Assembly (NCBI GenBank): GCA_020632795.1
Contig: JACKEV010000010.1
Coordinates: forward strand, 95,127-159,126
DNA length: 64,000 bases
Source of the DNA: Alphaproteobacteria bacterium
Lineage (GTDB): Bacteria; Myxococcota_A; UBA796; CAJQPC01
Direction: 5' to 3'
Of this stretch, positions 20,094 to 43,133 are shown piece by piece. Both the position numbers and the translations under genes were made by a program. Every line of letters starts with the position of its first letter. Position 1 is the stretch's first letter. The notes below the pieces were generated by a model. It had not been told where the DNA came from. It did not search any database and saw only the letters and a program-made list of their open reading frames with translations.

Positions 20094-21704
20094 TCATCCT
20101 GGGCAGCCAGCAGCAAAGTCCGCATAATCGCGGCGAACCCGAGAACTCCATACGAATCCTGCGCCATCCAGGACCAAGCCCGTCCCGACCATGCTCCAGC
20201 CGGCGGTGTTTACACCTGGCCAAGGCCCCCGTGGTTGCTGTGCCTGATCTGCCGCCACAGTCTGCCACCAGCCCAAGGCCACGGCGCCGCCTCCAAGCAG
20301 CATCAGGCTACCACCGACTGCCATGATACGTCTGCCCGATACAGCGGGGGATGCCCTTTCGATATACATGCAGTTCGTTTGGCGGGGAAACACAACAGCT
20401 GTCTGCGCCTCACCACCAACATGAAGGAAGTATGGCCCAGCGGGTCGCTCCAGGGAAAAGGGAGTGTAGCCGAGGTGCTGACCGTCCTGACTCACAGGGA
20501 GAACAAGTGGACGTCCACGTTGGTTGGTTGCAAGCAGATGTGCCGTTCCCTGAGGGTTTCCTCCCGCCAAGTCCAACACCAGCGTTTCCCCCGGGAGAAC
20601 CTTGACTACCTCGATACTCCCGCCGTCGAACTGTATCGTCACGGGCCCGGGTCGAACATCGAATGACGCCGTGCCGTAATCAGGCATCGCCTGTTTGCGT
20701 ACGCCGTTGATGACCGGTGTACCACCATTCGTAACTCGGAGTTCTATGTGCCCCAGTGGCGGCGAGGTAATCACAACTTCCGTGGTCTCACCAGAGACCA
20801 CGAACAACCGAACGCCTGGTCGGTAGCGTCCTTTCGTGTCGATGACCTGAGGCGGGTCATGTTCCGTGCTGGTCGCCCCATAAACCTGAGCAGGTAGCAC
20901 CGCTGCCAATTCGCCCAAAGTAATGAAACGGTCATGATTCAGATCGGCTGCACCCTCAATCGCGCGGACCAACTCACAGGTAAACCACCCTCCCCCCTGC
21001 CCATCGCAAGCAGCCGCCGACTCATAGCTTTCCTGCGTCTCAACAGAGGAAGCCATCATCCAGCGAGTCTGCCCGGCTCTTAGCAAGCTCTCGTTGATGC
21101 CGTCAATATTGAAGTTACCCAAACTCTTGCCACCCTTCGGGCGCATCTCCAGGCTGCCTGCGTGACAAGCGTCAACGAACACGAGGACGTGGGAGGATGA
21201 AAGAGCATCCATCCAGTTGACGTAGGTATCCTCAGAGAGCCCCGTATCTTCAATAGAGTACCGCCGCGTATCGTGCATCACCAAGTACATCTTCCCATCT
21301 TGGCCAGGATACCCGTGGGTAGAAATGAAAAGTATAAACACATCCGGCGGATTCTGGATGATCTTCCTCATCGCAGCATCCACACCTTCAACCGTTGCTG
21401 CTTCATTTAATAGGAGTGTCACATCCTTCGGCGAAAACGCGCCGGCAGATCGTTTGATCAAGGTATCACGGAACAGTTCAGCGTCCTGAGCAGCGTATTC
21501 CAAACGCGGGATCCCCAGGTCGTCCTTCTTGAGGTCCTCTCCCGTAGTGGAGAACTCGGAGATCCCCACGATTAGAGCCTTGTACTCCAATCTCATGTCA
21601 AGCCCGGCGGAGGGCACACTGGCCGGCACACGTTCAATGTCGCGCGAACCAGCAAACGATAGATCTTGAAGGAAAAATATAACCATCGCGAATAGCGGCA
21701 TCAT
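20094..21704 (-). CDS. Caspase-domain (peptidase C14) protein, extracytoplasmic, dyad intact
   Basis: ALIVGISEF...ISTHGYPG (catalytic His) ...VFVDACHAG (catalytic Cys). C-terminal beta-sandwich region and a Gly-rich TM tail. Lower GC than the flanks. Confidence 0.75.
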   Translation of the reverse strand: MMPLFAMVIFFLQDLSFAGSRDIERVPASVPSAGLDMRLEYKALIVGISEFSTTGEDLKKDDLGIPRLEYAAQDAELFRDTLIKRSAGAFSPKDVTLLLNEAATVEGVDAAMRKIIQNPPDVFILFISTHGYPGQDGKMYLVMHDTRRYSIEDTGLSEDTYVNWMDALSSSHVLVFVDACHAGSLEMRPKGGKSLGNFNIDGINESLLRAGQTRWMMASSVETQESYESAAACDGQGGGWFTCELVRAIEGAADLNHDRFITLGELAAVLPAQVYGATSTEHDPPQVIDTKGRYRPGVRLFVVSGETTEVVITSPPLGHIELRVTNGGTPVINGVRKQAMPDYGTASFDVRPGPVTIQFDGGSIEVVKVLPGETLVLDLAGGNPQGTAHLLATNQRGRPLVLPVSQDGQHLGYTPFSLERPAGPYFLHVGGEAQTAVVFPRQTNCMYIERASPAVSGRRIMAVGGSLMLLGGGAVALGWWQTVAADQAQQPRGPWPGVNTAGWSMVGTGLVLDGAGFVWSSRVRRDYADFAAGCPG

Positions 21705-24010
21705 GGGGCCTCCTGGACAACTGTGGAACTACCAAAGCCGAAGCAGGTGAGACTTCCGTCCGTGCCGACGGCGCAGGCTGCTTGGTCGCTGCCTACGGAG
21801 ACGCTTTGGTACGACCCAGACGGTTCACTTGCCAAGTAGCCACTGTCACCCCAGCAGTAGACACGGTGAAGGGTATCCACCGCGCAAGTGGTACCGGAAC
21901 TACCAACAGAAACGTCAACAAACCGGTAAGTCGTTGATGGAAGATCAGCCAATTGGCCCTCACCATCCGAGCCCCAACAACTCAAGATGCCCGAAGCGTT
22001 TATGGCGCACGCATGGCGATAGCCGGTAGACAGTACCGTGAAGGCCCCACTGGGAGTGCTGGACACCTGATCATACGTATCGCTGCCCCAACAAACCACG
22101 GCACCGCCCGCCCCGGTCAGTCCGCAACCGAAAGAGGACGCAAGATCTATCAACGTCATGGCACTCTCTGCGGGGGCACTCACTTCGCCAAAGTCATCAT
22201 CACCCCAGCACGTCACCGTTTGATCGCTGACGAGGAGCCCGCATGAACCGGTGCCCCACACCTCAACCTGAGCAATTGCGGCCGTGGGAGGATATGACTC
22301 GTTGTCCGTGTCCCTACCCCAGCAATGCACGACATCGTCCTGATCGACAGCGCACGCGTGGGAGCCACCGACACTCAACTGCACAAACCCATGACTTGTA
22401 GGCGCATCAGACACCTCGCCGAAGTCATCGTCCCCCCAACAATGCACAGCGCCGTTGGAGTCCAATGCACAGGCGTTGTCGTCGTCGCCAACTTCAACCT
22501 GAACCCAGATGGTATCCGCCCCGTCGCAGTCCTGATCTACTCCATCTGCGTATGTCTCTGTCGCACCAGGGTAGACGTTCACTGCAGAATCGTCACAATC
22601 GCTATTGTCGTCGACGTCGGTAGCGTTGGCCGGCGCGCAGACACTCGGAGACGCACCAGCTTCACCATACCCATCCCCGTCGGCGTCTGGATACCAGGAC
22701 ACCGATGGTTCAAGTGCGGCATCCTGGTCGTCACAGTCTCCACCAACCGATACGTAACCGACGATTTCATCACACGAGACGCTGGCTCCGGCGTCCGCTC
22801 CAAATCCATCCCCATCCCCATCTGGATACCAGGTCCTTGCGTCAGCAGAGTCGCCTTCGTTCACTTCGCCATCACAATCGTGGTCGATCCCGTCGCACCA
22901 CTCCGTACCCCCCGGCCAGACCGTAGAGTCGCCGTCGTCACAATCCCCATCAAAGGGGACGTAGCCAGAAGGCGCCGTGCAACTTACCTGTGATGAATCT
23001 GTTTCCCCGAAGCCGTCACCATCCCCATCCTGCCACCATGTCGAGGCGTTAATCGCCCTGTCCTCATCTATCTGGCCATCGCAGTCCTCATCCGTGCCCC
23101 CGCAATGTTCTTCCATGCTTGGTGCAACGGCACTGTCTCGATCGTCACAATCACCACCACTCAGACCGTCGCAATGTCCTTCGCTGCCGAGACAATCCTC
23201 GGCCTCACAGTAACAATCACCGTCATCATCCCACACGGCGGTATGATTGTCGATCCGACCATCGCAATCCTCGTCACGACCATCAATAGTTTCGGTACCA
23301 CCTGGCCGCGTCCAGGGGTCGGTATCATCGCAGTCCGTTCCCTCCAGAACATACCCCCACGGCTGATCGCAGGACTGCATAGTCTCGCCTCCAGCACCAA
23401 AGCCATCACCGTCCTCATCTGGATACCATATCCTCAACGTCGCGAGGTCCACATCCTCGTCGTCGAGATCCGTCAAGCGATCGCAATCATTGTCGACGTC
23501 ATCACAGACCTCTTCGGCGCCAGGATGAACGGAGGAGTCACCGTCGTCGCAGTCGTTCCCGAACGAAACCAATCCCTCTGAGCGAAAACAGGCCTCACGC
23601 GGTTGATCTGGATCCCCGTAGCCATCTCCATCCGCGTCTACGAACCACACGCTAGTGGTAGACCAGTCGAGATCCGCGTCCTCCTCGTCGATCTCCCCAT
23701 CGCAATCATTGTCCAGGTCATCGCACACCTCAACAGCATGGCGATACACCGATGGAGAGAGGTCGTCGCAATCTCCCTGAGCAATCGACATGCCATCCCC
23801 GTCCTGGTCGTGATTAGGCGCAGGGTTGAGGAGCACGCAGGCACAAAGTAGCGAAATAAGCAAAGTCTCTTCCTCCACAAGTCGGTACACAGGGTACATG
23901 CCTGTCTGAGTCTCGCCATCGTCGAACACCTCTTGAACGTACCGGCGAGGCGCGGTCCAATCCACACTCGCAGCGTCAATCTCGTTTCGACCAGTAAAAC
24001 GAAAAACCAC
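21701..24010 (-). CDS. Secreted protein: MopE-type Cys-rich repeats plus RCC1-like beta-propeller repeats (true start probably M at 23899 or 23791)
   Basis: N-terminal repeats of DCDD..D..V.PGA.E.CD..DNDCDG. The C-terminal AVHCWGDDDFGEV...SHACAV...VHCWGRD repeats are RCC1-like. The stop overlaps the start of caspase gene 20094..21704 (operon). Confidence 0.65.
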   Translation of the reverse strand: MVFRFTGRNEIDAASVDWTAPRRYVQEVFDDGETQTGMYPVYRLVEEETLLISLLCACVLLNPAPNHDQDGDGMSIAQGDCDDLSPSVYRHAVEVCDDLDNDCDGEIDEEDADLDWSTTSVWFVDADGDGYGDPDQPREACFRSEGLVSFGNDCDDGDSSVHPGAEEVCDDVDNDCDRLTDLDDEDVDLATLRIWYPDEDGDGFGAGGETMQSCDQPWGYVLEGTDCDDTDPWTRPGGTETIDGRDEDCDGRIDNHTAVWDDDGDCYCEAEDCLGSEGHCDGLSGGDCDDRDSAVAPSMEEHCGGTDEDCDGQIDEDRAINASTWWQDGDGDGFGETDSSQVSCTAPSGYVPFDGDCDDGDSTVWPGGTEWCDGIDHDCDGEVNEGDSADARTWYPDGDGDGFGADAGASVSCDEIVGYVSVGGDCDDQDAALEPSVSWYPDADGDGYGEAGASPSVCAPANATDVDDNSDCDDSAVNVYPGATETYADGVDQDCDGADTIWVQVEVGDDDNACALDSNGAVHCWGDDDFGEVSDAPTSHGFVQLSVGGSHACAVDQDDVVHCWGRDTDNESYPPTAAIAQVEVWGTGSCGLLVSDQTVTCWGDDDFGEVSAPAESAMTLIDLASSFGCGLTGAGGAVVCWGSDTYDQVSSTPSGAFTVLSTGYRHACAINASGILSCWGSDGEGQLADLPSTTYRFVDVSVGSSGTTCAVDTLHRVYCWGDSGYLASEPSGSYQSVSVGSDQAACAVGTDGSLTCFGFGSSTVVQEAP

Positions 24011-24645
24011 AGGTTCTGGCGGTCAGACAGTATGTAGGCGTCCGACAATATTCCTCCAGAAAAGCAGTTAAAGTATGCTCTGCATAGTCCGTCCTGATCA
24101 GGCTCAACCAGTCCAATATATACTATCTCCCATGGAGGATCTCCATCCTGCCTGATACCGTAACACCGATCGTAGTCCTGTATTCCCCCAATACCAACGC
24201 AGTGCGCCATGTGGCAGTCCATGCCGCGAGTAATTCCATATGGTTCGGCATCGATAAGATATGAGTTCCGCACGTCCCCCGCTGCAATTGAAACCGTGTT
24301 GCATTGAAATGGCACCACAATCGTCTCCATCACAGGTCTCCGCGCCATATCCACCTCCAACTCGACAATCGCAGCCTCGTTCAGGTCCTGCGAGTCTCCG
24401 AGAAGGACGATCTCTTCCTCTGCCAGTCCAATGCGTTCCCCACAGAACTCCAAGTCTTCTTGTGCCTGCCCCAATTGTCCCTCCAGAGCCCCCACTCGCT
24501 CCTCCACTTCGGCAAAGCCCGAGACCCCATCGACACCGTCACAGTTCTGATCGACTCCGTCCCCCAACACATCCGCCAGTCCACCCGGCACCCGGGGCTC
24601 GACAACGTCCAGAAGCATGGCTGACAGTCCTCCGAAGCGAATCAT
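23638..24645 (-). CDS. Hypothetical protein; 3' extent uncertain (overlaps the start region of the MopE/RCC1 gene)
   Basis: ATG at 24643-24645 overlaps the TGA of the upstream caspase gene (TGATG). The N-terminal part contains an NCDGVDG motif. The open frame runs through the AT-rich stretch 24000-24120 into the next gene, so there may be a frameshift or an earlier stop. Confidence 0.3.
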   Translation of the reverse strand: MIRFGGLSAMLLDVVEPRVPGGLADVLGDGVDQNCDGVDGVSGFAEVEERVGALEGQLGQAQEDLEFCGERIGLAEEEIVLLGDSQDLNEAAIVELEVDMARRPVMETIVVPFQCNTVSIAAGDVRNSYLIDAEPYGITRGMDCHMAHCVGIGGIQDYDRCYGIRQDGDPPWEIVYIGLVEPDQDGLCRAYFNCFSGGILSDAYILSDRQNLWFFVLLVETRLTLRVWIGPRLAGTFKRCSTMARLRQACTLCTDLWRKRLCLFRYFVPACSSTLRLITTRTGMACRLLREIATTSLHRCIAMLLRCAMTWTMIAMGRSTRRTRISTGLPLACGS

Positions 24646-26429
24646 CAGAACTCTCCCCCGACCTCGACCATCCCCAGCCCGACTCGGATCCCGACCGCGC
24701 GCACACGCCACCCCCCGACGACCAGCGCCGCCCCACCCAGCGCCACGCCCCCGATCCCGAGTTTGAACGCCGTGTCAAACTGGTTCTCCCCGGAATCGAC
24801 CGCGACGCACGCCCCCATCCCCGGGGTGTCGCCCTCCAGCCGCCCCTGCACGACCCTGGAGCCGACCATCGCCCCCAGCCCCGACGCCGCCATCGCCCCG
24901 CCCCCCCAGAGCCAGGCCTGCGGCTCCTGCCACCTCAGCCCGCCGCCAACCGACAGCGCCAGCCCAGCCCCGGCCACGCCCCAGCCGGCCGCATTGGCGC
25001 CAGCCCAGCCACGAGGCACCACCCCGTTGTAGACGGCGCGACAGCCGGGGCCCATCGAGGTGATCGCCACCGCAGTGCCCACGACCTGGAGGGCCGCGCC
25101 GGCAAAGGCGAGGTTCTGGGCGCCCCGATACGGGAGGGTGACCGTTAGGTCCAAGGTCTGGTTGTCCTCGAGCGAGAGGGGCTGCTCCACCCGACCGGCG
25201 CGCACGACATGGTCGCCGGGGCGCGTGTGGATGGTCAACGGGCGCTCGGGGGACTGAATCTCGTCGTCGAACACCACCTCGGATCGGATGGGGCGCCCCT
25301 GGCGGTTCTCTGTACGGAGGGTGAGGGTCGCGCCGGCTGTTCGTCCGACAACGAGCTCCTTGACCTCGCCCTTCTCCAGCATGACCGTCTGCTCTACCCC
25401 ATTGAAGACGACCCGGTGTGGGCCCGGCGCCAGATGCTGGAGGGTGACGAGGTTGCCGGGCAGCCGCACGCCGTAGTCCTGTCCGTCAACCAAGAGCGCT
25501 CCCTGTGCCAGGACGGTGACAACCAGCGTTGCCAGCCCCAGCTGCTCCACCACCACCACGGGGAAGTCCCCCGAGTTCTCGCCGCTTCGCCACGGCACCT
25601 GGACGTGTCCTCGGGCTACGGACTCATGCTTCACCTGCTCCCTGACGTAACCATACAGCTCCTCAGCGCTGACGACGCCGTCCTGAAGGATCCAGCCGTC
25701 GGCCTCCTGCCTCATGCCCTTCAGCAGGTAGTACGTCAACAGACCGTTGTTCAACTCATCATATTCGTAGGAATACCCCCCGAGGGCGGTCCCGTAGAGG
25801 ATGAAGGTGCCCTCAGAGTCTACGTACCGAGGGTTCGTCCAGGATGGAGGTTGTAAACTCTTGGAAACCCGTACCTGATTGCGGCAGGCATCCAGGATCA
25901 CAAGGCGCTGTTTGGCCTGGATGTTCTGCAGATCCGTCTGCACCCGAGCCAGCTCGATGCCCGTATCCTCGGGAAGTTCGGCATCGGCCTCGACAGGGAA
26001 GAGGTAGTTGACCCGCTCTTTCCCAACCTCGCTGCTCGCGCCATGCCCGGAGAAGAAGAACACGATGGACTCCAACTCTCCTTGTTCCCCCAGCTGATGA
26101 AGGTACTTCAGATGCTTGAGAATATTAACCTTTGTTGGCTGTAGATTGGGATCAAGCGCGTCCGGCGTCAGTACGATGACCTGTCGCTCCTTGTACACAC
26201 CACTCTCCACGAGCTGCGCGGCGAAGTCTCGTGCATCCTTGGCCGGGAACTTGAGGTCCTGGATGTCATCGTTTGTGTAGTCGTCGACCCCGATGATCAG
26301 CGCCCAGCGGCCCGAGGTCTCGGTGAGGATGTCGGCGGGGTTGTGGACAGTGATGTCCTTGGAGGACGCAGCGTCCTCCGGCGAGGATTGGGCCAGAGCG
26401 GCGGACAACATCGTGAGAAGGTGGAACAT
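24645..26429 (-). CDS. Caspase-domain (peptidase C14) protein, extracytoplasmic, dyad intact
   Basis: Signal peptide MFHLLTMLSAALAQS. WALIIGVDDY...FFFSGHGA...LVILDACRNQ. Paralog of 41346..43133 (same architecture, Gly-rich TM tail). Confidence 0.75.
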   Translation of the reverse strand: MFHLLTMLSAALAQSSPEDAASSKDITVHNPADILTETSGRWALIIGVDDYTNDDIQDLKFPAKDARDFAAQLVESGVYKERQVIVLTPDALDPNLQPTKVNILKHLKYLHQLGEQGELESIVFFFSGHGASSEVGKERVNYLFPVEADAELPEDTGIELARVQTDLQNIQAKQRLVILDACRNQVRVSKSLQPPSWTNPRYVDSEGTFILYGTALGGYSYEYDELNNGLLTYYLLKGMRQEADGWILQDGVVSAEELYGYVREQVKHESVARGHVQVPWRSGENSGDFPVVVVEQLGLATLVVTVLAQGALLVDGQDYGVRLPGNLVTLQHLAPGPHRVVFNGVEQTVMLEKGEVKELVVGRTAGATLTLRTENRQGRPIRSEVVFDDEIQSPERPLTIHTRPGDHVVRAGRVEQPLSLEDNQTLDLTVTLPYRGAQNLAFAGAALQVVGTAVAITSMGPGCRAVYNGVVPRGWAGANAAGWGVAGAGLALSVGGGLRWQEPQAWLWGGGAMAASGLGAMVGSRVVQGRLEGDTPGMGACVAVDSGENQFDTAFKLGIGGVALGGAALVVGGWRVRAVGIRVGLGMVEVGGEF

Positions 26430-26499
26430 CGTCAGACCTTATACAGATCAGTTGCAGTGACGGGGGCGGCTGGCTGGCGCGGCACAGAGGAGGTGGTCA

Positions 26500-28428
26500 T
26501 CAGTAGCTCCGGCCGAGCAGGACGTAGACGGAGCCAGAGTCGACGTTCCCGTTGTAGTCCGCCTGGTATCCGCCGATCAGCACGTCGTTCAGCCCATCGC
26601 CGTCCACATCCCCCGCGCCGGAGACGACATCTCCGAGCCATTCCCCAGCGCTCACGCCGTATATGCGCGCATCTGCGTCGGCGAGGCTCATCGATCCTGA
26701 CACCGGGCCCAGCACGACATAAGCTGCTCCGGCAAAAGAACCGCCTGTGCTGTTGTTGGGCCCGCCAAGTACGACGTCGTCGTAGCCATCCCCGTCAACA
26801 TCACCCACACTGTCGGTAGATACGCCAACGTAGTCGGGCCCTTGTTCGCCGTACAGCTTCGCATCATGGTCAGCCAGAGGCACATCCCCTGCCAGTGGTC
26901 CGTAGAACACGAAGATCGCCCCAGCGTCCCTCCCGCCGGTGTCGTCGCCATGAGAGCCGACGAGGGCATCCGCGTACCCATCGCGGTTGAAGTCCCCACG
27001 TGCGTTCACGGACTCCCCCAAGATGCCCCCCACGGTATCCCCCTGGATGGTCGCATCAGCGTCTTCGAGGCTGATGATCCCAGGCAGGGGATCGTACAGC
27101 AGGTACACCGCGCCTGAGTTCTCGGCCCCCAGGTCGGCGCCTGGGCCTCCGATGATCACGTCTGCAAACCCGTCGCCGTCCACGTCGCCGCCTCCCGCGA
27201 CCGACACCCCGGTTTCATCGTCGGCGGCCACGCCTGTGAACATGGAGGTCGCAGATGAAAGGGCAGAGTTCGCCATCGGATTCGTCAACAGATACACAGC
27301 ACCGGCCCGCGAGAAGCTTGAACTCTCACCGGGCGCAGCAATGAGCAAATCCACCTGACCATCTCCGTCCACATCACCGGCATTGGCAATGGAGGTGCCA
27401 GCCAGATCGCCAGGCGCTACGCCTACGAACTTCGCGTCTGCAGCAGCGAGGTTCATGTTACCGGACACCGGCCCGAGCACGAGATAGGCTGCGCCGGCCT
27501 CGACACCGTTGGTGCCCTCATGACTGGCGCCGATCAGGAGGTCATCGTAGCCGTCGCTGTTGACATCCCCGGCCGCTGCGACCTGATGCCCCGCCCAGTC
27601 CCCCGCGCCCTCCCCGATGAGTGTGGCGTCGGCGTCCCCAAGCGACCCGCCAGACGTGATGGGACCAAGGATGAGGTAGGCTGCACCGGCCTCGGTCATC
27701 CCGTGCCCGGACTCCTTGAACGCCCCCACCATGATGTCGTCGACGCCGTCATTGTTGACGTCCCCGACGCCCGCAAGCGCCCGCCCCGCCCAGTCCCCCG
27801 CAGCCTCTCCATCAAATCGAATCACCTCCGCCGAAGTCAGGTCGATCTCTCCCCAGCAGCTCCGCGTCGCCTGTTCCACATCGCTGTAGCAGTCGTTGAC
27901 GACGCCGTCGTCGCAGACCTCCGGCGCGCCTGGGAAGACAAGCTCGTCGTTGTCGTCGCAGTCCTCGCCGCGAAGACCGTCCTCGTTGACATGGCTCGCC
28001 GTTGCCCAACCGTCGCCATCAGCGTCGTAGTCGTTCCCACCATCGCAGGCCTGATCGATGCCATCATACCAACTCTCCTCCGCGCCAGGGTAGGCCGCCG
28101 GGTCGCCGTCGTCACAGTCGTTGCAGTCTTCAACGTAGGTTGCCGGTCCCTCGCAAGAGGTCAGCGTCTGCTCAGGATCGCCGTAGCCATCGCCATCGCC
28201 ATCCAGACACCAGACCCGGGCGTCCACCGCCGTGGCGTCGTTCACCCGACCATCACAGTTCTCATCAACCTGTTCGGCGTCACAGAGCTCATCGGCGCCC
28301 GGGTGGATGGCTGCGGCGGTGTCCGCGCAGTCCACCTCATAGGTGTAGCCATCCTGATCGATGTCTGTCGGATCCGCCTTCCACAAGCACCCCTGAACCA
28401 TCAACCCCACCAGCAGCAGACCTCGCAT
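26500..28428 (-). CDS. Lipoprotein with MopE-type repeats and FG-GAP (integrin-alpha-like) beta-propeller repeats
   Basis: Start MRGLLLVGLMVQGC (lipobox) with GGAGG upstream. The ORF track start at 28875 is a GC artefact. Repeats include GDVNNDGVDDIMVGAF...AGAAYLILGP. Confidence 0.7.
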   Translation of the reverse strand: MRGLLLVGLMVQGCLWKADPTDIDQDGYTYEVDCADTAAAIHPGADELCDAEQVDENCDGRVNDATAVDARVWCLDGDGDGYGDPEQTLTSCEGPATYVEDCNDCDDGDPAAYPGAEESWYDGIDQACDGGNDYDADGDGWATASHVNEDGLRGEDCDDNDELVFPGAPEVCDDGVVNDCYSDVEQATRSCWGEIDLTSAEVIRFDGEAAGDWAGRALAGVGDVNNDGVDDIMVGAFKESGHGMTEAGAAYLILGPITSGGSLGDADATLIGEGAGDWAGHQVAAAGDVNSDGYDDLLIGASHEGTNGVEAGAAYLVLGPVSGNMNLAAADAKFVGVAPGDLAGTSIANAGDVDGDGQVDLLIAAPGESSSFSRAGAVYLLTNPMANSALSSATSMFTGVAADDETGVSVAGGGDVDGDGFADVIIGGPGADLGAENSGAVYLLYDPLPGIISLEDADATIQGDTVGGILGESVNARGDFNRDGYADALVGSHGDDTGGRDAGAIFVFYGPLAGDVPLADHDAKLYGEQGPDYVGVSTDSVGDVDGDGYDDVVLGGPNNSTGGSFAGAAYVVLGPVSGSMSLADADARIYGVSAGEWLGDVVSGAGDVDGDGLNDVLIGGYQADYNGNVDSGSVYVLLGRSY

Positions 28429-30039: not shown

Positions 30040-31320
30040 CTATCCGGACGGCTCCACGTCGTAGATCAGATCGACGACCAGCGCAGCGGCGCCGTCAACG
30101 GGCGCTGACCAGTCCGCGCAGGCCCCCACGGTACGCAGAACCACGGGCTCGTCGGGGACCCAGGGCGTCTCCCCCAACGACTTTGACCAGGCGTCGCCAG
30201 CGTCCGATCGCGTCGGGTCCGGCAGGATCTGCCCCACCAGGGGCTCGGCGCCCCGGAGCACCACCAGACGCTCCAGGCGCTCCGGGGGCTCCAGGCGGAA
30301 CGGGAAGAACACCGTCTCCCGGTCCTGGTGCGACACCACAGAGAAGCCCGCCGCCACAGGGTCCAGGGTGAGGAGCTGCACGCCCCCGCCCCCCGGCGCG
30401 CTGACCGACAAGGTGTAGAGCTGCCGGGATCGCAGCCCGCGCCCCGCCGGGGTGCCGTCCACGCACACCCGCACCGGCACGGCCGGGATCGGGGTCGGCT
30501 CGGGCCAGAGCATCCAGGCCCCGACGCCGAGCCCCGCCATGGCCATCCCCCCCGCCCAGCGCAGCCAGCGGGGCGTCGGGGCGGGCGCCACGGGTCGCGT
30601 CGCGAACCGCGCGACGGCGTCCCGGAGGTCCCGAACCGCGACGGCTTCGACCTCCACCGCCTCGGGCAGCGTCGACCCCTCCGGCACAAACACCCGGGTC
30701 AGGCGACCCGAAGCGGCCGCCAGCTTGGCCGACAGACCGCCCACGGCGCTCACCCGCCCGTCGACCCCCACGCCTCCCGTGAAGCCGATGTCATCGGGCA
30801 CGTTGATGCCCTCCAGCGCGCAGCGGGTCGCCACGGCCAGGGGCAGGCCCAGGGAGGCGCCGTCCACCGCGAACAGCGACTCGTCCTCGACGTCGAGGTC
30901 CCACAGCACCAGGTGCGCCCCGAGCTGCACGCCAAGCGCGGCGTGGATGGCCCGGGTGCAGGCCTGGGCCGACTCCTGGCCCAGCTTCACATGCGGCACC
31001 TGCGTGCCCCGGCCGGGGTAGACGCTGACGGTCAGCCGCCCCAGGCGACCCTCGCCCTCCGGGGTGACCAGCAACGCCCAGGCGGACGCCGTGCGCGGGG
31101 GAGCGCGGCCGAGCTGCGCCTCCAACCGCTGGACGATGGGGGCCAGCTCCACGCGGTGGTCGTCCAGCTCCTGAAGGCAGAGCTGGGCTTCGGCCGAGGA
31201 GATGGAGACCTCTCCCCCCAGGTGGTTGACGAGCTGGCCCACCGCCGTGGTGTAGGCCAGGCGATCCCCGCCGGCGCGGGCGACGCGGATCGCGTGCAGC
31301 ATTCGGGCGATGGTGCTCAT
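30040..31320 (-). CDS. Lon-like (S16) peptidase-domain membrane protein
   Basis: Start MSTIARMLHAIRV at 31320. VDGASLGLPLAVATRCAL...TGGVGVDGRVSAVGGLSAKLAAA resembles a Lon proteolytic domain (Ser in the DGAS-LG context, Lys in GGLSAK). TM helix WLRWAGGMAMAGLGVGAWML, then a C-terminal extracytoplasmic domain. Confidence 0.55.
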   Translation of the reverse strand: MSTIARMLHAIRVARAGGDRLAYTTAVGQLVNHLGGEVSISSAEAQLCLQELDDHRVELAPIVQRLEAQLGRAPPRTASAWALLVTPEGEGRLGRLTVSVYPGRGTQVPHVKLGQESAQACTRAIHAALGVQLGAHLVLWDLDVEDESLFAVDGASLGLPLAVATRCALEGINVPDDIGFTGGVGVDGRVSAVGGLSAKLAAASGRLTRVFVPEGSTLPEAVEVEAVAVRDLRDAVARFATRPVAPAPTPRWLRWAGGMAMAGLGVGAWMLWPEPTPIPAVPVRVCVDGTPAGRGLRSRQLYTLSVSAPGGGGVQLLTLDPVAAGFSVVSHQDRETVFFPFRLEPPERLERLVVLRGAEPLVGQILPDPTRSDAGDAWSKSLGETPWVPDEPVVLRTVGACADWSAPVDGAAALVVDLIYDVEPSG

Positions 31321-31492
31321 GCGAGCTGCCTTCTCTGCGGGCGCACGGGGCGGGCAGGGTGTACCGGATTCGACGGACGAAAGAGAAAATCCGAACTTCC
31401 TCGACCGGCGCGCTTGGCGTTCAGGGCGAGGACGACGGGGCGCACGCCTCGGTCGAGCCTCATCCAACCCAGACGCCCCCTGGAGGCCCCAC

Positions 31493-32027: not shown

Positions 32028-32090
32028 GCTCGGCTCCGGCCTTTTCCCCTGGGGGCGGGCGTGCCCGGGCCCGCCCCCTGGAGCCCCGCC

Positions 32091-36238: not shown

Positions 36239-36651
36239 GCTGGCCCCGAACCGTCGCTCTGGCTGCTCTGGCCGGCTGCTACGACCCCATCTACGGGGTG
36301 CCCGCCGACACGAGCGGCACCTCGGTGCCCGCCGTCGACGACCCCACCTGGACCGAGCACGTCGGCCCCACCTTCGCCAAGGGCTGCGGCGAGGGCTGTC
36401 ATGGCGGAGCGACCCCCGCCGCCGGTCTGACCATCGCCTACGAGGGCCTGGTGGATGTGCCCGCCGGGCAGCTCCCCGCCATGCCCCTGGTCACCCCGGG
36501 CGATCCCACACAGAGCTACCTCTGGCACAAGCTGGAGGGCACCCACGAGGAGGTCGGCGGCTCCGGTAGCCGCATGCCCCTGGGCCTGCCGCCGGGCGAG
36601 GCCGAGCTGGACCTCATCGCCACCTGGATCACCAACGACGCGCCGGAGTAG
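36235..36651 (+). CDS. PSCyt-type (Planctomycete cytochrome-c-like) small lipoprotein
   Basis: ATGA overlap with the upstream gene, GGGAGGG RBS. LAALAGC lipobox. GCGEGCHGG...PGDPTQSYLWHKL...MPLGLPPGEAELDLIATWITN matches the PSCyt1 pattern. Confidence 0.5.
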   Translation: MSWPRTVALAALAGCYDPIYGVPADTSGTSVPAVDDPTWTEHVGPTFAKGCGEGCHGGATPAAGLTIAYEGLVDVPAGQLPAMPLVTPGDPTQSYLWHKLEGTHEEVGGSGSRMPLGLPPGEAELDLIATWITNDAPE

Positions 36652-36655
36652 GGCC

Positions 36656-37522
36656 ATGCTGCTGAGCCTCCTTCTGTTCGGGAACACCGCTCTGGCCACC
36701 GTGGATGAGGCCTGCCTGGGCCTCGCCCGCCCCGACGACTATGACGAGCAGACCCAGGCGGACTTCCTCAACAACGCCGTGGCCCTGGCCTCGACCCTCT
36801 CACCCCTGCACGGCCCCGTGCCCCACGCGGCCGGGCGCGGATCGGTGGGGCTGGATCTCGCGGTCATCCCCCCGCTGGGCTGCCGTCACCGCATGGTGCT
36901 GGACTGGACCAAGTCCGAGGACACCAACAAGTCCCCGGTCCTGCCCCGCCCCCGGATGACCTTCGCGTTCAACCCCATCGCCGGGCGGCTGTTCCCGTAC
37001 GGTGGCGTGGCCTTCGTGCCGCCGGTCCCGGTGGCCGGGGTGCGCAGCGTGGTCGCGTCGGTCGAGGCCGGGGTGGGGGTGTATGTGGGGCAGCACGCCC
37101 AGCTCGGGGTGCGGGTCCACGGCACCCTCCAGACCGTGCTGGGGGACGTCGCGACGTCCTTTGAGGAGGACGGCCCGGTGGTCGAGGATCTGTATGTGGC
37201 GACGAGCCAGGGGGTCGACGTGATGCTCGGCTGGGAGCTGGAGCGGGTCACGCCGTACCTGGCGCTGGGCTACGCGGACGTGGGGACGTTCTTCTGGATC
37301 GGCGACGACGCCTACGTCAGCAACAACCTCCACCCCTACCTCGGCCCGGCCGCGTCATTGGGGGCGGACGCGCTCTTGTTCGACCGGCTGCGGCTGGCCG
37401 GGGAGCTGTACGCCGCGCCCGGGGGGCACACCACCCCTCGGGACAACATCGAGTCCCTGCCGGGCTTCGGCCGCTACGGCCACCTCTACACCGCGCGCCT
37501 GCGCATCGCATACGAACTCTGA
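36656..37522 (+). CDS. Secreted hypothetical protein (possible outer-membrane beta-barrel)
   Basis: MLLSLLLFGNTALA is a signal peptide. Alternating amphipathic strands; the ORF track's earlier start at 36455 is not supported. Confidence 0.45.
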   Translation: MLLSLLLFGNTALATVDEACLGLARPDDYDEQTQADFLNNAVALASTLSPLHGPVPHAAGRGSVGLDLAVIPPLGCRHRMVLDWTKSEDTNKSPVLPRPRMTFAFNPIAGRLFPYGGVAFVPPVPVAGVRSVVASVEAGVGVYVGQHAQLGVRVHGTLQTVLGDVATSFEEDGPVVEDLYVATSQGVDVMLGWELERVTPYLALGYADVGTFFWIGDDAYVSNNLHPYLGPAASLGADALLFDRLRLAGELYAAPGGHTTPRDNIESLPGFGRYGHLYTARLRIAYEL

Positions 37523-37544
37523 TCCCCCTTGAGGAGGACAATCA

Positions 37545-39385
37545 TGAACAAGTCATTCGCGATTGCAGGCATGCTGCTGCTGAGCGCCTGCGACTGCTAC
37601 TCCAACCGCTTCCCCGGAAGCTGCGCGACAGAGGACCCCACCTCCTCGACCCCGGCGGACGACTCGGCCTCCTGCGATGCCCTCGCCGCCGAGGCCCTGA
37701 CCGTCCTGAGCACCCACTGCGCGGGGTGTCACGCCAACGGGCGCGCCGAGGGCGGCTTTGACTATCTCCTGGACGTCGACAAGCTCGTCGAGCTGAACAA
37801 GGTCCGCTCCGGAGACCCGGAGGGCTCCGCCCTGTTCAACCGGATGGCCAGCGGCTCGATGCCGCCGTACGGGGAGGGGCCCTCCGACGCGGAGATCGAA
37901 GCAGTGCGAGGCTGGATCGCGTGCGGCGTGGACGCGGCCGCGCCGGAGCGGGCCTTCGTCCCCAACGAGACCGTGTTCAGTTGGATGGCCGAGGATCTGC
38001 GCGGGATCCAGGAGCCTGAGCGGATCTACATCCGCTACATCAGCCTGGTACATCTGTGGAACGCCGGGGTCGCCGAGGGGCGGCTGGACACCTACCGGGC
38101 GGGGCTGGCCAAGCTCCTGAACCACCTGTCCTGGATGCCGCGCATCACGAACCCCACGCCGGTCGACGCGGACGCGCTGCTCTACCGCATCGACCTGCGG
38201 GACTACCGCTGGCAGGCGACGACCGAGGACCCCGTCGACGCCTGGGAGACCGTGGTCGCCCGCGACCCCTACGCCTTCGCATACGACGACGCGGACTTCC
38301 GCTTCGTGGTCGAGAACACGGCGGCCCGGCAGCCCCTGCTGCACGCCGACTGGCTGGTCGCGGCGGTCGCCGTGCCCCCCCTCTACCACCGCGTCCTGGA
38401 TCTGCCGGCCCGCCAGGCCGACTTCCTGACCCTGTTCGGGGTGGATCAAGCACAGAACGTCGCGGACGCGGTGGTCGATCGCATGGGCTTCCAGCAGTCC
38501 GGGGTCTCGGACAACAACCGCGTCATCGAGCGCCACGACGCCGACTACGGCTACTGCTGGACCAGCTACGACTTCGGCGGCAACGGCGGCGCCCAGAACA
38601 TCCTGGCCGACCCGCTGGGCTTCCGCCCGGACGGCGGCGAGCTGTTCTGCAGCCTGCCCAACCACCTCCAGGCCTACCTGCTGGCCAACGCGGCCGGCGA
38701 CCGCCTGGACGTCGGCCCCGACCACATCGTGTACGACAACCTGCACGATCGGGAGGTGGTCAACGGCCTGGGCTGCATGACCTGTCACACCCGGGGCATC
38801 CTCCCCAAGGACGACCAGGTGCTGCCCTATGTGCTCGACAACGAGCACCTGTTCACCCCCCAGGAGTTGGAGCGCATCACCCTGCTCTACCCCCCCAACG
38901 ACGAGGGCCGCGCGCTCCAGGCCGCCGACCAGGCCTCCTTCCTGGAGGCGCTGGACCTCACTGGCGCCCCCCAAGCCTACGAGACCGAGCAGGTGTTCGC
39001 CCTGAGCGAGGCCTTCGCCGACGACCTCGACCTGGCCCGCGCCGCCGCAGAGGTGGGCCTGACGCCGGAGGAGCTGGAGGACCGCATCCCCTACTTCTCC
39101 GACGACGTGAAGCGGGAGCTGAACAACCTGCTCTCCCCCGGCGGGACCGTGCAGCGGGGCATCTTCCTGGGGCTGGCCCGGGAGGTCATCTGTGTGGTCG
39201 AGGGGGCCGCGGACAGCGACGGGGCGTGTCTGGATGTCGAGGGGGCCTGTGGGGCGGCGGGGGTGGCTTGCCTGGAGGGGCAGGGGTGTGTGTCCGCGCA
39301 TGAGGCGGACGCGGGGGCGTGTGTGCGCTGCGCGGTGTTGGGGGGAGCGTCGGTGAGCCTCGATCTCGATGGACAGGGTTGTTGA
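37545..39385 (+). CDS. Heme-binding lipoprotein, PSCyt-type cytochrome-c domain family
   Basis: Lipobox LLLSAC. CAGCH at residue ~60 is a CxxCH heme-binding motif; the second CxxCH-like site CMTCH follows. The N-terminal domain is PSCyt1-like (GGFDYLLD...MPP...WIACG). Confidence 0.55.
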
Positions 39386-39493
39386 GGGCTGACACAGGAT
39401 CACGACGCAGTATCCAGAGTGCACATCCGCCACAAATATTCAACGACCTCGACCAACGATAATAGAGGACTCTCCTGACACCGGAGAACGACC

Positions 39494-41113
39494 ATGAAAT
39501 CGTGCATCATTCTCGTCTTGCTCAACGGCTGCATCTTGTCCACGCTCAACAAGGACGCCCCGCCATCAGACGGCGGCGACGGCGATGGTGACGGTCAATC
39601 CGCCGTCGAGGCGGATGGTTCGGACTGCGACGACCTTGATCCGACCGTGTACGCCGGGGCACCGGAGATCTGCGACGACGGGAAGGTCAACGACTGCGTC
39701 GCCGAGCCCTGTGAGGCGGCCATCGCCTGCTGGGAGGAGACGACCAGCGAGAACGCTGATGCTTCCGTGATTGTCCCACCGAACGGTTCCGGTCAGGAGC
39801 ACCTCCGCATCGCGTCGGCCGGAGACCTGACCGGCGACGGCCACCGGGACATCCTCATCGGTTCGCCATTCCACGACGAGGACGGCAACGCAAACGTGGG
39901 CGCGGCGTTCCTCGTCGAGGGGCCGCTGTCGGGACAGATCGATCCGGCCACCGACGCGAACCGTCTTGTCGGAGCGGATGCCAACGTGAGGCTGGGCTCC
40001 GCCATCGCCACCGTGGGAGACGTGAACGGGGATGGCCATGACGATGTCCTCGTCGGGGCGTTGAACGACAGCTCCGCAGGCGAAGACGCCGGCGCAGTCC
40101 ACGTTCTGTGTCGGGGTGCCGATTGGACCGGGGCATCGCCCGGCACAGGCGTCAAGCTACTCGGAGAGGCGCCGGAAGACACCTTCGGGCACGCCCTGGC
40201 CGGGCTGGGGGATGGGAACGCCGATGGCCTGAACGACTTTGCGATCGGGGCCTGGTACCATGACGGGGCCAGCATCGACAACAGTGGCGCCGTCTACCTG
40301 ATTCATGGGAGGACTGGCTGGGGAGAAGCTGTCCACCAGCAGGTCTACCCGATCGAAGCGGTGGCCGACGCAAAGGTGTACGGCAAGTCCACGGGGGACG
40401 GCTTCGGCTTCTCCATGACCAATGCAGGGGATACCGACGGCGACGGGGTAGATGAGCTCCTGGTCGGCGCCCCGTTCGAGGATGGCGACGCCCGGCCGGA
40501 TGCAGGCGGGGCCTACCTCGTTCCGAGCGACCTCACCGGTGTTCATGTGGCCTCCGACGGCTTCGTCAGGCTCACCGGCGAGAATCAGGACGAAAACGCC
40601 GGGTTCGCGGTGGCCGGCCCTGGCGACGTCAACGCCGACGGCTATGACGACCTCTTCATCGGCGCAGACTCTGCCGGACCTGCAGGGGAAGGCGCTGCAT
40701 ACCTGCTCTTCGGCCCGACCCAGGGGCGCACGGGCCTGAAGGACGCCGCCACCACCTTCATCGGCGAGCACCCGGACTCCCGGGCCGGGTTCGCCCTATC
40801 CGGGGCCGGAGATGTGGATGGAGACGGCCTGCTGGACCTCCTCGTCGGCGCCAAGTGGGTGGACTACAGGACCACGGGTGTCGGTCGGACCTACCTGATC
40901 CTCTGCCCCTCGACCGGGACGGTGTACCTGTCCGATGTCACCTCCACCATCACCGGTGTCAAGGGGGGTGAGGAGCTCGGCGCATCTGTGGCCGGGGCCG
41001 GCGATCTGAACAACGACGGGCTTGATGACCTCTTGATTGCGGCGTGGGGAGACACAGATGGCTACAATGCTACGGGCGGCGTGGTCCACGTGTTCCACGG
41101 TCGATCCTTCTGA
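39494..41113 (+). CDS. FG-GAP repeat lipoprotein with one MopE-type motif
   Basis: MKSCIILVLLNGC lipobox. Contains GDLTGDGHRDILIGSP, GDVNGDGHDDVLVGA and further FG-GAP units. Confidence 0.7.
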   Translation: MKSCIILVLLNGCILSTLNKDAPPSDGGDGDGDGQSAVEADGSDCDDLDPTVYAGAPEICDDGKVNDCVAEPCEAAIACWEETTSENADASVIVPPNGSGQEHLRIASAGDLTGDGHRDILIGSPFHDEDGNANVGAAFLVEGPLSGQIDPATDANRLVGADANVRLGSAIATVGDVNGDGHDDVLVGALNDSSAGEDAGAVHVLCRGADWTGASPGTGVKLLGEAPEDTFGHALAGLGDGNADGLNDFAIGAWYHDGASIDNSGAVYLIHGRTGWGEAVHQQVYPIEAVADAKVYGKSTGDGFGFSMTNAGDTDGDGVDELLVGAPFEDGDARPDAGGAYLVPSDLTGVHVASDGFVRLTGENQDENAGFAVAGPGDVNADGYDDLFIGADSAGPAGEGAAYLLFGPTQGRTGLKDAATTFIGEHPDSRAGFALSGAGDVDGDGLLDLLVGAKWVDYRTTGVGRTYLILCPSTGTVYLSDVTSTITGVKGGEELGASVAGAGDLNNDGLDDLLIAAWGDTDGYNATGGVVHVFHGRSF

Positions 41114-41345
41114 CCCGACGGAGAGCCGAACCATCACTCCCCCCAATATCTGAATCAGAATTGGCTTTTCGCTGAGAAACAGAACCCACTTCGAGCCCTC
41201 ACCACCGCCGCACCAAAGGTGGTATACAGACAACCAAGTCGGGACGGGACGTTCGACAGCGCTCCAACGCGTGACACGCCGCTGAAGCGGCGCCGCTCAT
41301 GCCAGATACACAGAGCCTTCCTCCCCCAAGGGGTCGGGCTCCCAG

Positions 41346-43133
41346 GTGGCGAACGTCATGTCTCCGACGCTGTTTCTCCTCTCCGCAGCCCTCGCTCAAC
41401 AAGAGCATGCCGACACGTCCCAGCGACGCGATCTGGTCCCCCACGACGCCTCGGAGCTGTTCAGCAACAGCGGCAAGCGTTGGGCCATCGTCATCGGCGT
41501 CGACGAATATGAGAACCCGGACATCCAGGATCTGCGCTTCCCGGCGCAGGACGCGAGGAGCTTCGCCGATCGACTGGTGGGGAGCGGCGTCTACGCCGCC
41601 GAGCGGGTCCTGGTCCTCACGCCGGATCAGTCGGACCCCCGGTTGCGGCCCGACAAGAACAATATCCTGAGGGTGCTCCAGCAGCTGAAGGAGTTGGACG
41701 AGTTGGAGTCCGTGGTGTTCTTCTTCTCCGGTCATGGGGCCGCCGAGGAGCTTGAGGACGGTCGGGTCAACTACCTCTTCCCCGAGGATGCGGACGCCGG
41801 ACTGGCGAAGGATACGGCCATCCCCCTCAATAGGATACTATCGGATCTGTACGCGGTGGACGCAAAGAAGCGGTTCATCGTGCTGGACGCCTGCCGGAAC
41901 CAGGTCAGCGTAGGCAAGGGTCTGCAACCGCCAGCCTGGGAGGACCCCCGGTACGCTACCGCCGAGGGCACGTTCATCCTCTACGGTACAGCGTTCGGAA
42001 GCTATTCCTATGAATATGAGGATCTTGGCGCAGGGCTGCTCACCCACCACCTGGTACAGGGCATGGACGGGGCAGCAGACGGACTGGAGCAGTACGACGG
42101 CGTCGTCAGTGCGAGCGAACTCTACCGATACGTCAAGGAGCAGATGGAGAACGAGACCGTCCACCGACGCCACACACAGATCCCGGTACAGGCCGGTGAG
42201 AACTCCGGCGACATCCCCGTCCTGGTCGTCCCCGACTGGCGGGAGCATGTGCTCGCAACCCTCGACGTCACCCCATGCCGGACCGGCGTGCTCGTGCTCG
42301 ACGGCCGGAGCGTCGGCGTGGTCCAGCAAGGCGAGACCGAGCGGATCGAGCGGCTCCAGCCTGGACGCCATGAGCTGGCTCTGGATGGAGAGCACCGCGT
42401 GGTTGTGCTCAAGGAGGGCGAGTATCTGCCCATTCGCATGTGTCGAGAAGCGGCGACGCTGCGCATCACAACCCGCACAGCCGACGGCCGGGAGCTTCAT
42501 GTGCCGGTCAAGGTGGACGGCGCCCGCGTTGGCCGCACGCCCATCAACGTCGACCTGCCGGCCGGGAGTCATGCGCTGGAGTTGGGGTGGTGGCTCACCG
42601 ACACCGTGGACGTACCCGCAGGCGGCGACATCCCGCACGATCTGGTTGTTGAGCACCGGGGCGCCCGGAGCGTCGCTCTCACCGGCGCGGTGCTCCAAGG
42701 GGCCGGCACCGCGCTCGCTGTCGGCGCGCTGTCCCCGACCTGCGGCGCTGTCGCAGCCGGAGACCACCCGGAGGGTTGGGTCGCCGCCAACGCGGTGGGC
42801 TGGGGCACCGCAGGGCTCGGTCTCGGTCTCACGATCGCGGGAGGCCTCCGCTGGCAGGAGCCAGAGGCCTGGCTGGTCGGCGGCGCTGGTCTCGCGGCCT
42901 CTGGCCTCGGCGCGGCCCTGGGCGCGACGGGGATCTCCCACGTGCACGCCGACTCCTCCGGCACGCCCGCCTGCGTTGTCGCAGGCACCACCGATCCGCT
43001 CCGCAGCGCCGCGATCCTGGGGTGGTCGGCGGCTGGCGTGGGGGCGGCTGCGCTGGGGGTCGGGGCGTGGAGAACGCGCTCGGCATCCGTGAACATCGGC
43101 CCCGGCTGGGTCCGAATCAGCGGGCGCTTCTGA
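41346..43133 (+). CDS. Caspase-domain (peptidase C14) protein, extracytoplasmic, dyad intact
   Basis: Signal peptide, then WAIVIGVDEY...FFFSGHGA...IVLDACRNQ. Paralog of 24645..26429. Confidence 0.75.
   Translation: MANVMSPTLFLLSAALAQQEHADTSQRRDLVPHDASELFSNSGKRWAIVIGVDEYENPDIQDLRFPAQDARSFADRLVGSGVYAAERVLVLTPDQSDPRLRPDKNNILRVLQQLKELDELESVVFFFSGHGAAEELEDGRVNYLFPEDADAGLAKDTAIPLNRILSDLYAVDAKKRFIVLDACRNQVSVGKGLQPPAWEDPRYATAEGTFILYGTAFGSYSYEYEDLGAGLLTHHLVQGMDGAADGLEQYDGVVSASELYRYVKEQMENETVHRRHTQIPVQAGENSGDIPVLVVPDWREHVLATLDVTPCRTGVLVLDGRSVGVVQQGETERIERLQPGRHELALDGEHRVVVLKEGEYLPIRMCREAATLRITTRTADGRELHVPVKVDGARVGRTPINVDLPAGSHALELGWWLTDTVDVPAGGDIPHDLVVEHRGARSVALTGAVLQGAGTALAVGALSPTCGAVAAGDHPEGWVAANAVGWGTAGLGLGLTIAGGLRWQEPEAWLVGGAGLAASGLGAALGATGISHVHADSSGTPACVVAGTTDPLRSAAILGWSAAGVGAAALGVGAWRTRSASVNIGPGWVRISGRF

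Follow-up and report, generated by a model that had tools for sequence, protein, structure and literature searches.

The 64,000-nucleotide stretch of DNA analysed here (hereafter the window; contig JACKEV010000010.1, positions 95,127 to 159,126, from an assembly deposited as "Alphaproteobacteria bacterium") encodes three caspase-like peptidases, termed C1, C2, and C3, whose genes are linked to genes for Cys-rich propeller lipoproteins. The three are genuine C14 caspase-fold proteins with an intact His/Cys dyad, and they are of the metacaspase/orthocaspase type. On balance, and with moderate confidence, we favor the reading that C1-C3 are Sec-exported, envelope-tethered C14 peptidases that are paired with the lipoproteins as a two-part module. 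An earlier note on this DNA had singled out the three peptidases. It missed the most informative feature of the locus, which is the linkage to lipoprotein genes and its recurrence in other metagenomes.

All three open reading frames were found exactly where the earlier note had placed them: C1 (536 amino acids) at 20094..21704 and C2 (594 amino acids) at 24645..26429, both on the minus strand, and C3 (595 amino acids when begun at a GTG codon) at 41346..43133 on the plus strand. C3 is the NCBI protein P0002, which is 591 amino acids long in that database, a length that fits a start at the ATG at 41358. The assignment of all three to family C14 holds, because each scores above the Pfam Peptidase_C14 (PF00656) cut-off of 21.4 bits: C1 at 49.5 bits (E 5.8e-13), C2 at 76.1 bits (E 4.2e-21), and C3 at 60.5 bits (E 2.4e-16). 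The matches span profile positions 2-3 to 195-225 of 233, and the C14 domains occupy residues 42-253 of C1 (nucleotides 20946-21581), 41-283 of C2 (nucleotides 25581-26309), and 44-281 of C3.

Translation and alignment place the dyad of C1 at His130 (nucleotides 21315-21317) and Cys180 (21165-21167), within the motifs STH130GY and VDAC180HAG. In C2 the residues are His129 (26043-26045) and Cys182 (25884-25886), within SGH129GA and LDAC182RNQ, and in C3 they are His130 (41733-41735) and Cys183 (41892-41894), within SGH130GA and LDAC183RNQ. The intact dyad that had been reported for all three proteins is therefore confirmed, and the motif His, Gly, Asp, and Cys are invariant in an alignment of 21 sequences that includes the nearest database relatives. 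The first motif had been given as SGHGA in each protein, which is correct for C2 and C3, but C1 has STHGY instead. In HMMER alignments to solved metacaspases, the His falls on the catalytic SGHG of Yca1 and AtMC4, and the D-x-C motif falls on DSCHSG of Yca1.

An AlphaFold2 model of C2 contains a caspase domain at residues 41-285, where the predicted local distance difference test (pLDDT) score is mostly above 90. When this model was compared with the PDB by using Foldseek, the top solved matches were MALT1 (caspase domain plus Ig3), Yca1, and GSU0716, and other matches were a Candida metacaspase, plant and trypanosome metacaspases, and caspase-9, with E values of 1e-13 to 1e-9. The HG and AC motifs thus lie within a caspase fold, as modelled for C2. 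Metacaspases are set apart from orthocaspases by a p10 domain, which the latter lack. In the p10 region, the match reaches position 225 of 233 in what is a general C14 profile and not a p10-specific hidden Markov model, and the C2 model is well folded after the catalytic Cys (residues 205-285).

The S1 pocket of metacaspases is lined by residues equivalent to Asp95 and Asp211 of TbMC2, according to PMC6426788. Both equivalents are kept and invariant in the family; in C2 they are D65, which falls on the Asp of the CxND motif of Yca1 and AtMC4, and D180, the Asp of the D-x-C motif. Because both acidic residues are conserved, specificity for Arg or Lys is expected, and by homology C1-C3 probably accept one of these residues at P1. 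A loop of C2 (residues 185-200), modelled with low confidence, has four basic residues and lies at the place where caspases are cut between subunits, which makes it a candidate site of autoprocessing.

The region after the caspase domain had been described as a beta-sandwich followed by a Gly-rich C-terminal membrane segment; a PEGA-like beta-sandwich region and a Gly-rich, hydrophobic C-terminus are supported. C1 has a beta-sandwich region at residues ~300-450 and a Gly-rich helical hairpin at residues 457-520. The C2 model has two all-beta domains at residues 300-431 (nucleotides 25137-25532; pLDDT 72-90) and a helical C-terminus, in which residues 436-594 (nucleotides 24648-25124) form four Gly/Ala-rich helices and a terminal beta-hairpin that ends in GGEF. 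C3 has PEGA-like beta-sandwiches at residues ~300-436, then four helices and a terminal beta-hairpin that ends in SGRF. The number of helical hairpins is thus one in C1 and two in C2 and C3, and only the latter pair adds a terminal beta-hairpin with Phe as the last residue. The identical architecture attributed to the three proteins applies to C2 and C3, which are 46% identical from end to end, but not to C1, which is collinear with both at ~22% identity and lacks the second hairpin, the terminal beta-hairpin, and the Phe.

The Pfam PEGA profile (PF08308) has a length of 71 and a cut-off of 20.8 bits. C3 scores above this cut-off (21.9 bits with the full protein, 27.1 bits with the region alone), but over profile positions 15-41 of 71 only. 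The match is marginal for C1 (E 0.14), and C2 has no PEGA match. A profile of the beta-sandwich region pulls many proteins that match just that part, and PEGA domains were found in five of the six that were scanned.

AlphaFold2 modelling of the C-terminal 229 residues of C2, with seven family sequences, gave four helices, each 22-32 residues long and with pLDDT 67-81, and after them a beta-hairpin of low confidence. A G-x-F/W end after a beta-hairpin is found in 12 of 19 hairpin-type relatives. A Pfam scan of the C-terminal 85-160 residues alone found no Gly-zipper or other family at E values up to 10, no NCBIfam sorting-signal model matches the module, and a search of the PDB with the anchor gave no structural match at E <1e-3, the best being small beta-sandwiches. 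Despite the terminal Phe of C2 and C3, the module does not resemble a C-terminal beta-barrel signal: it is modelled as helical, with no barrel, and position -3 is Gly. The C-terminal hairpin module, with neither a Pfam or NCBIfam model nor a solved analogue, is new in the libraries and literature searched.

Every active caspase gene (C1-C3) sits among genes for lipoproteins that carry Cys-rich MopE repeats and a propeller. A MopE-RCC1 protein (21701..24010, minus strand) has six MopE repeats, an RCC1 propeller (Pfam Cu-binding_MopE 3e-52, RCC1_2 6e-26), and a lipobox-like LLISLLCAC; translation probably begins near 23860. The stop codon of this gene overlaps the C1 start codon (ATGA), and C1 has an AGGAGG Shine-Dalgarno sequence. 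FG1 (26500..28428, minus strand; MRGLLLVGLMVQGC) is a lipoprotein with seven FG-GAP repeats and MopE (Pfam FG-GAP 2e-38, MopE 1.5e-20), is a gene call of 642 amino acids in contig L001, and lies 71 nucleotides upstream of C2. The C2 stop codon in turn overlaps (TGATG) the start of gX, an open reading frame of 335 amino acids (23638..24645, minus strand). gX consists of a MopE remnant at residues 22-38 (Pfam E 0.015, below the cut-off) and then a coiled-coil-like Cys-rich region, and it is a gene call of 326 amino acids in the Logan contig L002.

The plus-strand gene C3 is flanked by genes for lipoproteins with FG-GAP and MopE domains. FG2 (39494..41113, plus strand; MKSCIILVLLNGC) is 233 nucleotides upstream of C3, and FG3 (43133..44809, plus strand; MLAPLLVAAIGC), identified by Pfam and its lipobox, overlaps the C3 stop codon with its start codon (TGATG). 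FG4 (44849-46525, plus strand; lipobox LVAC) and FG5 (46525-48312, plus strand; lipobox CIGC) have the same domains and the same transcriptional direction as C3 and FG3. Bare adjacency is weaker evidence than the coupling of these genes and its recurrence.

The C14-PEGA-hairpin architecture is rare, and it is new in the libraries and literature searched. Word-indexed searches with C1 and C2 across 5.8 billion proteins gave only caspase-domain matches, besides the paralog C3 for C2. Full-length alignment against 185,579 species genomes, a set that does not include the source genome, likewise gave only caspase-domain matches at <=40% identity, from which the C-terminal motif was absent. When the C-terminal module was searched exhaustively with HMMER against 1.84 billion cluster representatives, ~8 proteins including C1-C3 were recovered, and all other matches covered the PEGA part only. 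Beyond C1-C3, P0028 is a full-length relative, P0030, P0051, and P0066 have the C14-PEGA-hairpin arrangement, and P0096 is a non-caspase protein that has PEGA repeats with the same hairpin and tail. The anchor motif W[AVP][GA][AV]N[AGT][AV]GW had no matches in a metagenome scan, and an alignment of seven sequences was too divergent to be used as a source of patterns.

A metagenome scan seeded with P0066 and P0051 found 54 loci that belong to a broader marine and mat clade. In this clade the caspase domain is followed by FGE-sulfatase, by Sel1 repeats, by other exported-type modules, or directly by a Gly-rich hairpin. A lipoprotein gene is next downstream of the caspase gene in L079, L080, L081, L090, L104, L092, L097, L100, and L087, and in L079, L080, and L081 the partner gene begins a few bases before the caspase gene ends. 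According to Pfam, the partners have FG-GAP (L079, L097), RCC1 (L080, L092), or FGE-sulfatase (L090, L104), and the FG-GAP and RCC1 partners may or may not carry MopE as well. No MopE, FG-GAP, or RCC1 neighbor occurs at any of 76 loci around general C14 homologs. Some members have FGE-sulfatase as a fusion to the caspase, and in others the adjacent gene encodes it; by the Rosetta-stone argument, this suggests physical cooperation between peptidase and partner. The recurrent, often translationally coupled linkage between caspase and lipoprotein genes, seen here and in unrelated metagenome contigs, is new in the literature searched; queries that combined Peptidase_C14 with PEGA, or caspase with FG-GAP and lipoprotein, returned nothing relevant.

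Another local expansion of exported caspases is present in the marine metagenome contig L088 (7998-14778). Its three tandem genes of the exported-caspase clade encode proteins of 730, 861, and 711 amino acids that end in a similar C-terminal domain (LPTxxELxxL…VLCV).

The N-termini of C1 (MMPLFAMVIFFLQDLSFAG, before SR), C2 (MFHLLTMLSAALA, then QS), and C3 (MSPTLFLLSAALA, then QQ) are predicted signal peptides on the basis of sequence features and family conservation. All complete family members have an N-terminal h-region and an AxA-like site 10-30 amino acids before the caspase domain, which supports the export signals that the earlier note had proposed, and acidic residues follow the h-region, a feature also of mature exported proteins. 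Canonical n-regions bearing Lys or Arg occur in P0028 (MRLILLLLSLAQA, then QEP), P0003, P0007, and P0012. Relatives in the P0066/P0051 subfamily (35-55% identity in the caspase domain) are FGE-sulfatase or Sel1 fusions behind signal peptides, and P0007, a relative of C2, is likewise fused behind a signal peptide. Exported proteins commonly carry PEGA-type domains, and the partners, as lipoproteins whose MopE repeats are rich in disulfides, belong outside the cytoplasm. Judging from these sequences, C1-C3 are quite likely to be exported.

Extracytoplasmic caspase homologs had also been called unusual. This was an overstatement, as surveys list many with signal peptides or membrane helices, and the closest caspase-domain relatives of C1-C3 have canonical signal peptides, along with partner domains of kinds that are usually exported. 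In Asplund-Samuelsson et al. 2012 (PMC3501461), membrane helices are reported in 15% of 671 prokaryotic metacaspases; most such helices are N-terminal and likely signal peptides, and extracellular localisation is discussed. Exported or membrane-associated prokaryotic caspase homologs are therefore already documented.

The window contains five caspase-like genes, not three. C5 (28508..29887, minus strand) keeps the His (His126), and its Cys is replaced by Val176 (VDPVHQS). It has an N-terminal hydrophobic segment, a weak C14 match (9e-5), a C-terminal DUF4384 (8e-10), and a fraction of G and C at third codon positions (GC3) of 0.91, which is native for this DNA. Directly upstream of C5 on the same strand is a gene (30040-31467) for a protein that has Lon_C (S16) only, with no AAA module, and that gives weak PADLOC matches to CRISPR-Lon and CARF-Lon (E 3e-4 to 3e-3). 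C4 (34850..36238, plus strand) keeps His115 and has Val165 in place of Cys (LDAVHQE), with a signal peptide (VSRRLLIALALAASPALA, then QG) and a C-terminal DUF4384. It was detected by tblastn with C1 and C3, has a weak CHAT match in Pfam in addition to DUF4384, and scores 52.7 bits with the NCBIfam caspase model, below the cut-off. C4 and C5 are 36-37% identical and, with Val at the catalytic Cys in each, lack the dyad. The common type of prokaryotic pseudo-variant has Tyr/Ser, in contrast to the Cys-to-Val change with a retained His that is seen here.

Native genes of the window (GatB, C4, C5, and others) have a GC3 of 0.89-0.97. The values are 0.61 for C1 and 0.59 for its MopE-RCC1 partner, 0.82 for C2 and 0.74 for FG1, and 0.82 for C3, within a range of 0.78-0.86 for FG2, C3, and FG3-5. 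Two of the three peptidase genes had been said to lie in lower-GC DNA; the atypical composition is real, but the count is not, because all three are below the native GC3. The difference between the cassettes (0.59-0.86) and native genes (0.89-0.97) suggests that the cassettes were horizontally acquired and are of different ages. A DDE transposase gene (49943-51160) follows FG5, outside the caspase genes, and is the sole transposase gene in the window. No tRNA genes that might mark the boundaries of a mobile element are present in the window.

The transposase gene is flanked by low-GC stretches (48512-49526 and 51357-52109) that are diverged direct repeats with 71-88% identity. The repeats hold four paralogous minus-strand open reading frames of 85-111 amino acids that are Cys-rich (48512-48769, 49191-49526, 51357-51683, and 51710-52039). 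A C-terminal signature close to GGA..C.YE.YC recurs in three of the four, and the lipobox-like LAGCC of one has a similar counterpart, GACC, in another. At the other end, the border between native DNA of 77% GC and the low-GC island is the 3' end of a gene that is convergent with C1 (18052-19995, plus strand). Its product of 647 amino acids has no Pfam match and begins with a signal-like segment, and it ends in a hydrophobic helix and the residues LKR (GWVGLAALGLAGLWAVVMLKR), in the manner of a C-terminal signal for sorting or anchoring.

We propose that C1-C3 would be exported via Sec with loss of the signal peptide, so that two PEGA-like beta-sandwiches would form a stalk carrying the catalytic C14 domain beyond the cytoplasm. 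The protein would be tethered to a membrane by alpha-helical hairpins rich in Gly and Ala, of which C1 has one and C2 and C3 have two, and the C14 domain would cleave after Arg or Lys. Each peptidase gene and a gene for a Cys-rich lipoprotein with MopE repeats and an FG-GAP or RCC1 propeller would make up an operon-like, often coupled pair. The propeller of the lipoprotein might bind a ligand, and the lipoprotein itself might be a substrate, in maturation, shedding, or turnover, or else a recognition subunit that brings substrates to the peptidase. The modules would have diversified into paralogs after horizontal acquisition. C4 and C5 are possible non-catalytic partners or regulators, which may bind the same ligands without cleaving.

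Several observations weigh against an exported, envelope-tethered module. The n-regions of C1-C3 have no Lys or Arg. In the one-hairpin proteins (L082, L083, L100, L104, L106, L116, and C1), the stretches before helix 1 and after helix 2 are rich in Lys and Arg, and the loop is acidic with 0-2 such residues; for a hairpin in the inner membrane, the positive-inside rule would thus put these flanks on the cytoplasmic side, and the caspase domain with them. The helices are only marginally hydrophobic, an assessment based in part on a rough, indicative Hessa-scale estimate of insertion energy made without positional weighting, and the terminal part of the C2 models has low confidence. We also know of no family member with a known substrate, cleavage site, or activity. 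In addition, MopE and FG-GAP genes are abundant here (eight open reading frames in the window have MopE, one of them a sub-threshold remnant), so some of the adjacency to caspase genes could be due to chance. A six-repeat MopE protein that is encoded away from the caspase genes (6492-8549, plus strand) tempers the adjacency argument in the same way. SlyB-type helical hairpins reside in the outer membrane, and by analogy the hairpin may pass through Sec and insert into the outer membrane, which is one resolution of the conflict over charge.

The alternative that fares best, although we consider it unlikely, is an envelope conflict or self/non-self system, in which the propeller lipoprotein would sense a foreign or kin-specific ligand, for example from a phage, predator, or neighboring cell, and trigger the caspase to damage the envelope or process an effector. 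Such a system would parallel sensor-plus-caspase immunity modules, but beyond the cytoplasm. The cassettes are paralogous and fast-diverging, have a foreign GC3 and a transposase gene nearby, and cluster active caspases with pseudo-caspases, and the sensor-like partners vary (FG-GAP, RCC1, or FGE-sulfatase) and are either fused or adjacent. Moreover, prokaryotic conflict systems repeatedly use caspase domains as effectors (PMC3482391). However, the locus has no NTPase, effector-associated domain, toxin, or immunity gene and no known defence component, which also bears on the cell-death or kin-interaction role suggested in the earlier note, and there are no STAND, AAA, or effector-associated domain neighbors of the caspase genes in the window. 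The NCBIfam caspase_w_EACC1 match is sub-threshold (66-83 bits, with a cut-off of 140), the PADLOC match is to the generic 'caspase' model only, and an extracytoplasmic caspase immune module would be without experimental precedent. A known anti-phage defence system was considered as a separate candidate and rejected, given this generic match and the lack of a partner NTPase or adaptor.

Distinctly improbable is the idea that C1-C3 are surface proteases for nutrient acquisition, similar to gingipain or clostripain and anchored in the outer membrane, and that the lipoprotein linkage is incidental to an island of surface-protein genes. The window is indeed rich in surface-type proteins, marginally hydrophobic Gly-rich hairpins could escape retention in the inner membrane, and degradative secreted clan CD peptidases are known (PMC3482391). 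The G-x-F/W ends noted above would also suit an outer-membrane location, but the C-terminus is unlike the canonical beta-barrel signal, no barrel is predicted, and there is no match to a Gly-zipper family. In addition, the translational coupling, and FGE-sulfatase partners that are fused in some loci and adjacent in others, point to specific cooperation. Least probable of all is that C1-C3 are cytoplasmic, tail-anchored caspases, with an uncleaved N-terminal stretch, the hairpin in the inner membrane, the acidic loop outside, and the caspase and beta-sandwich domains inside: the charge of the hairpin flanks and the n-regions would fit, but the h-region and AxA site of all complete members (canonical in P0028 and the fused relatives), the acidic residues that follow, the extracytoplasmic nature of PEGA-type domains and of the MopE lipoproteins, and the close relatives fused to FGE-sulfatase or Sel1 with no membrane helix between all argue against it.

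C1-C3 resemble several known systems in part. Prokaryotic metacaspases and orthocaspases (MEROPS C14B; for example, Microcystis MaOC1) share with them the caspase-hemoglobinase fold, the His-Cys dyad, and two acidic S1 residues, and often have extra C-terminal domains, N-terminal helices or signal peptides in a substantial minority, and co-occurring pseudo-variants. The combination of C14, two PEGA-like domains, one or more Gly-rich hairpins, and a terminal aromatic residue is not among the architectures in the consulted sections of the Asplund-Samuelsson 2012 and Klemencic 2019 surveys, and neither PEGA nor FG-GAP appears in the main text of PMC3501461. Linkage of prokaryotic caspase homologs to propeller lipoproteins was not found in the literature searched. 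MALT1 paracaspase, the best structural match of the C2 model (Foldseek E 1e-13), also has a beta-sandwich directly after the caspase domain, together with an acidic S1 pocket that is specific for Arg. In contrast to MALT1, which is cytoplasmic and eukaryotic, C1-C3 lack a death domain and an N-terminal Ig domain, and identity is 10-17%. By the criterion of an Ig domain before p20, paracaspases are reported to be absent from prokaryotes in Klemencic et al. 2019 (PMC6426788), a survey of 11,115 bacterial caspase homolog sequences; in C1-C3, just the signal peptide precedes the caspase domain.

Bacterial caspase-FGE-sulfatase fusions belong to the same clade (35-55% identity to P0066 and P0051) and have a signal peptide and a recognition-type domain associated with the peptidase. 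In these proteins the partner is fused, whereas in the hairpin type it is a separate lipoprotein from an adjacent gene and the peptidase has an anchor of its own. Outer-membrane lipoproteins with a glycine zipper 2TM domain of the SlyB/Pcp type likewise combine a Gly-rich helical hairpin with a beta-sandwich in an exported protein. Unlike them, C1-C3 have the opposite domain order and no lipobox, and there is no sequence similarity (Pfam E up to 10) or structural similarity. Secreted clan CD peptidases (gingipains of C25, clostripain of C11, and toxin-releasing caspase-like proteins) also place a caspase-like fold outside the cytoplasm, where they process surface proteins or toxins (PMC3482391). 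C1-C3 differ from these in belonging to another MEROPS family and in having no toxin domain, no type IX secretion system C-terminal domain, and no propeptide architecture. A polymorphic-toxin releasing peptidase (Tox-Caspase) was rejected as a candidate, because the C-terminus consists of a beta-sandwich and hairpins with no toxin domain and the neighbors are lipoproteins.

Two other proteins of the window were recorded in passing. A radical-SAM/SPASM protein is encoded at 731-1879 (plus strand), and a protein of 848 amino acids (52211-54757, minus strand) has an RNase-J-like module of metallo-beta-lactamase, beta-CASP, and RMMBL domains followed by a C-terminal LOG/SLOG 'lysine decarboxylase' domain.

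GatB (14984-16411, minus strand) has a best non-self identity of 52-56% among 5.8 billion proteins, and its matches are named from many phyla. This low identity and mixture of phyla suggest a deep, poorly sampled lineage and make the NCBI label "Alphaproteobacteria bacterium" doubtful; the label is here neither confirmed nor replaced. Because the host belongs to an uncultured, deep-branching lineage and all functional claims are inferential, the value of the finding is limited. The charges around the hairpin are not those expected of an ordinary inner-membrane anchor, and therefore the hairpin may be a new mode of tethering in the Gram-negative envelope. A bolder proposal, which we offer as speculation and think unlikely, is that hairpin caspases and their coupled lipoproteins are a two-component envelope system, that the hairpin with G-x-[F/W]-COOH is a new outer-membrane anchoring or sorting module, and that the caspase processes, or is gated by, a propeller- or FGE-type lipoprotein receptor. 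If true, this system would be an extracytoplasmic counterpart of sensor-plus-caspase modules. To our knowledge, no exported bacterial caspase homolog has an established physiological substrate. A conserved, coupled partner gene provides a concrete candidate substrate or co-receptor, and with it the function of exported caspases becomes testable pair by pair.

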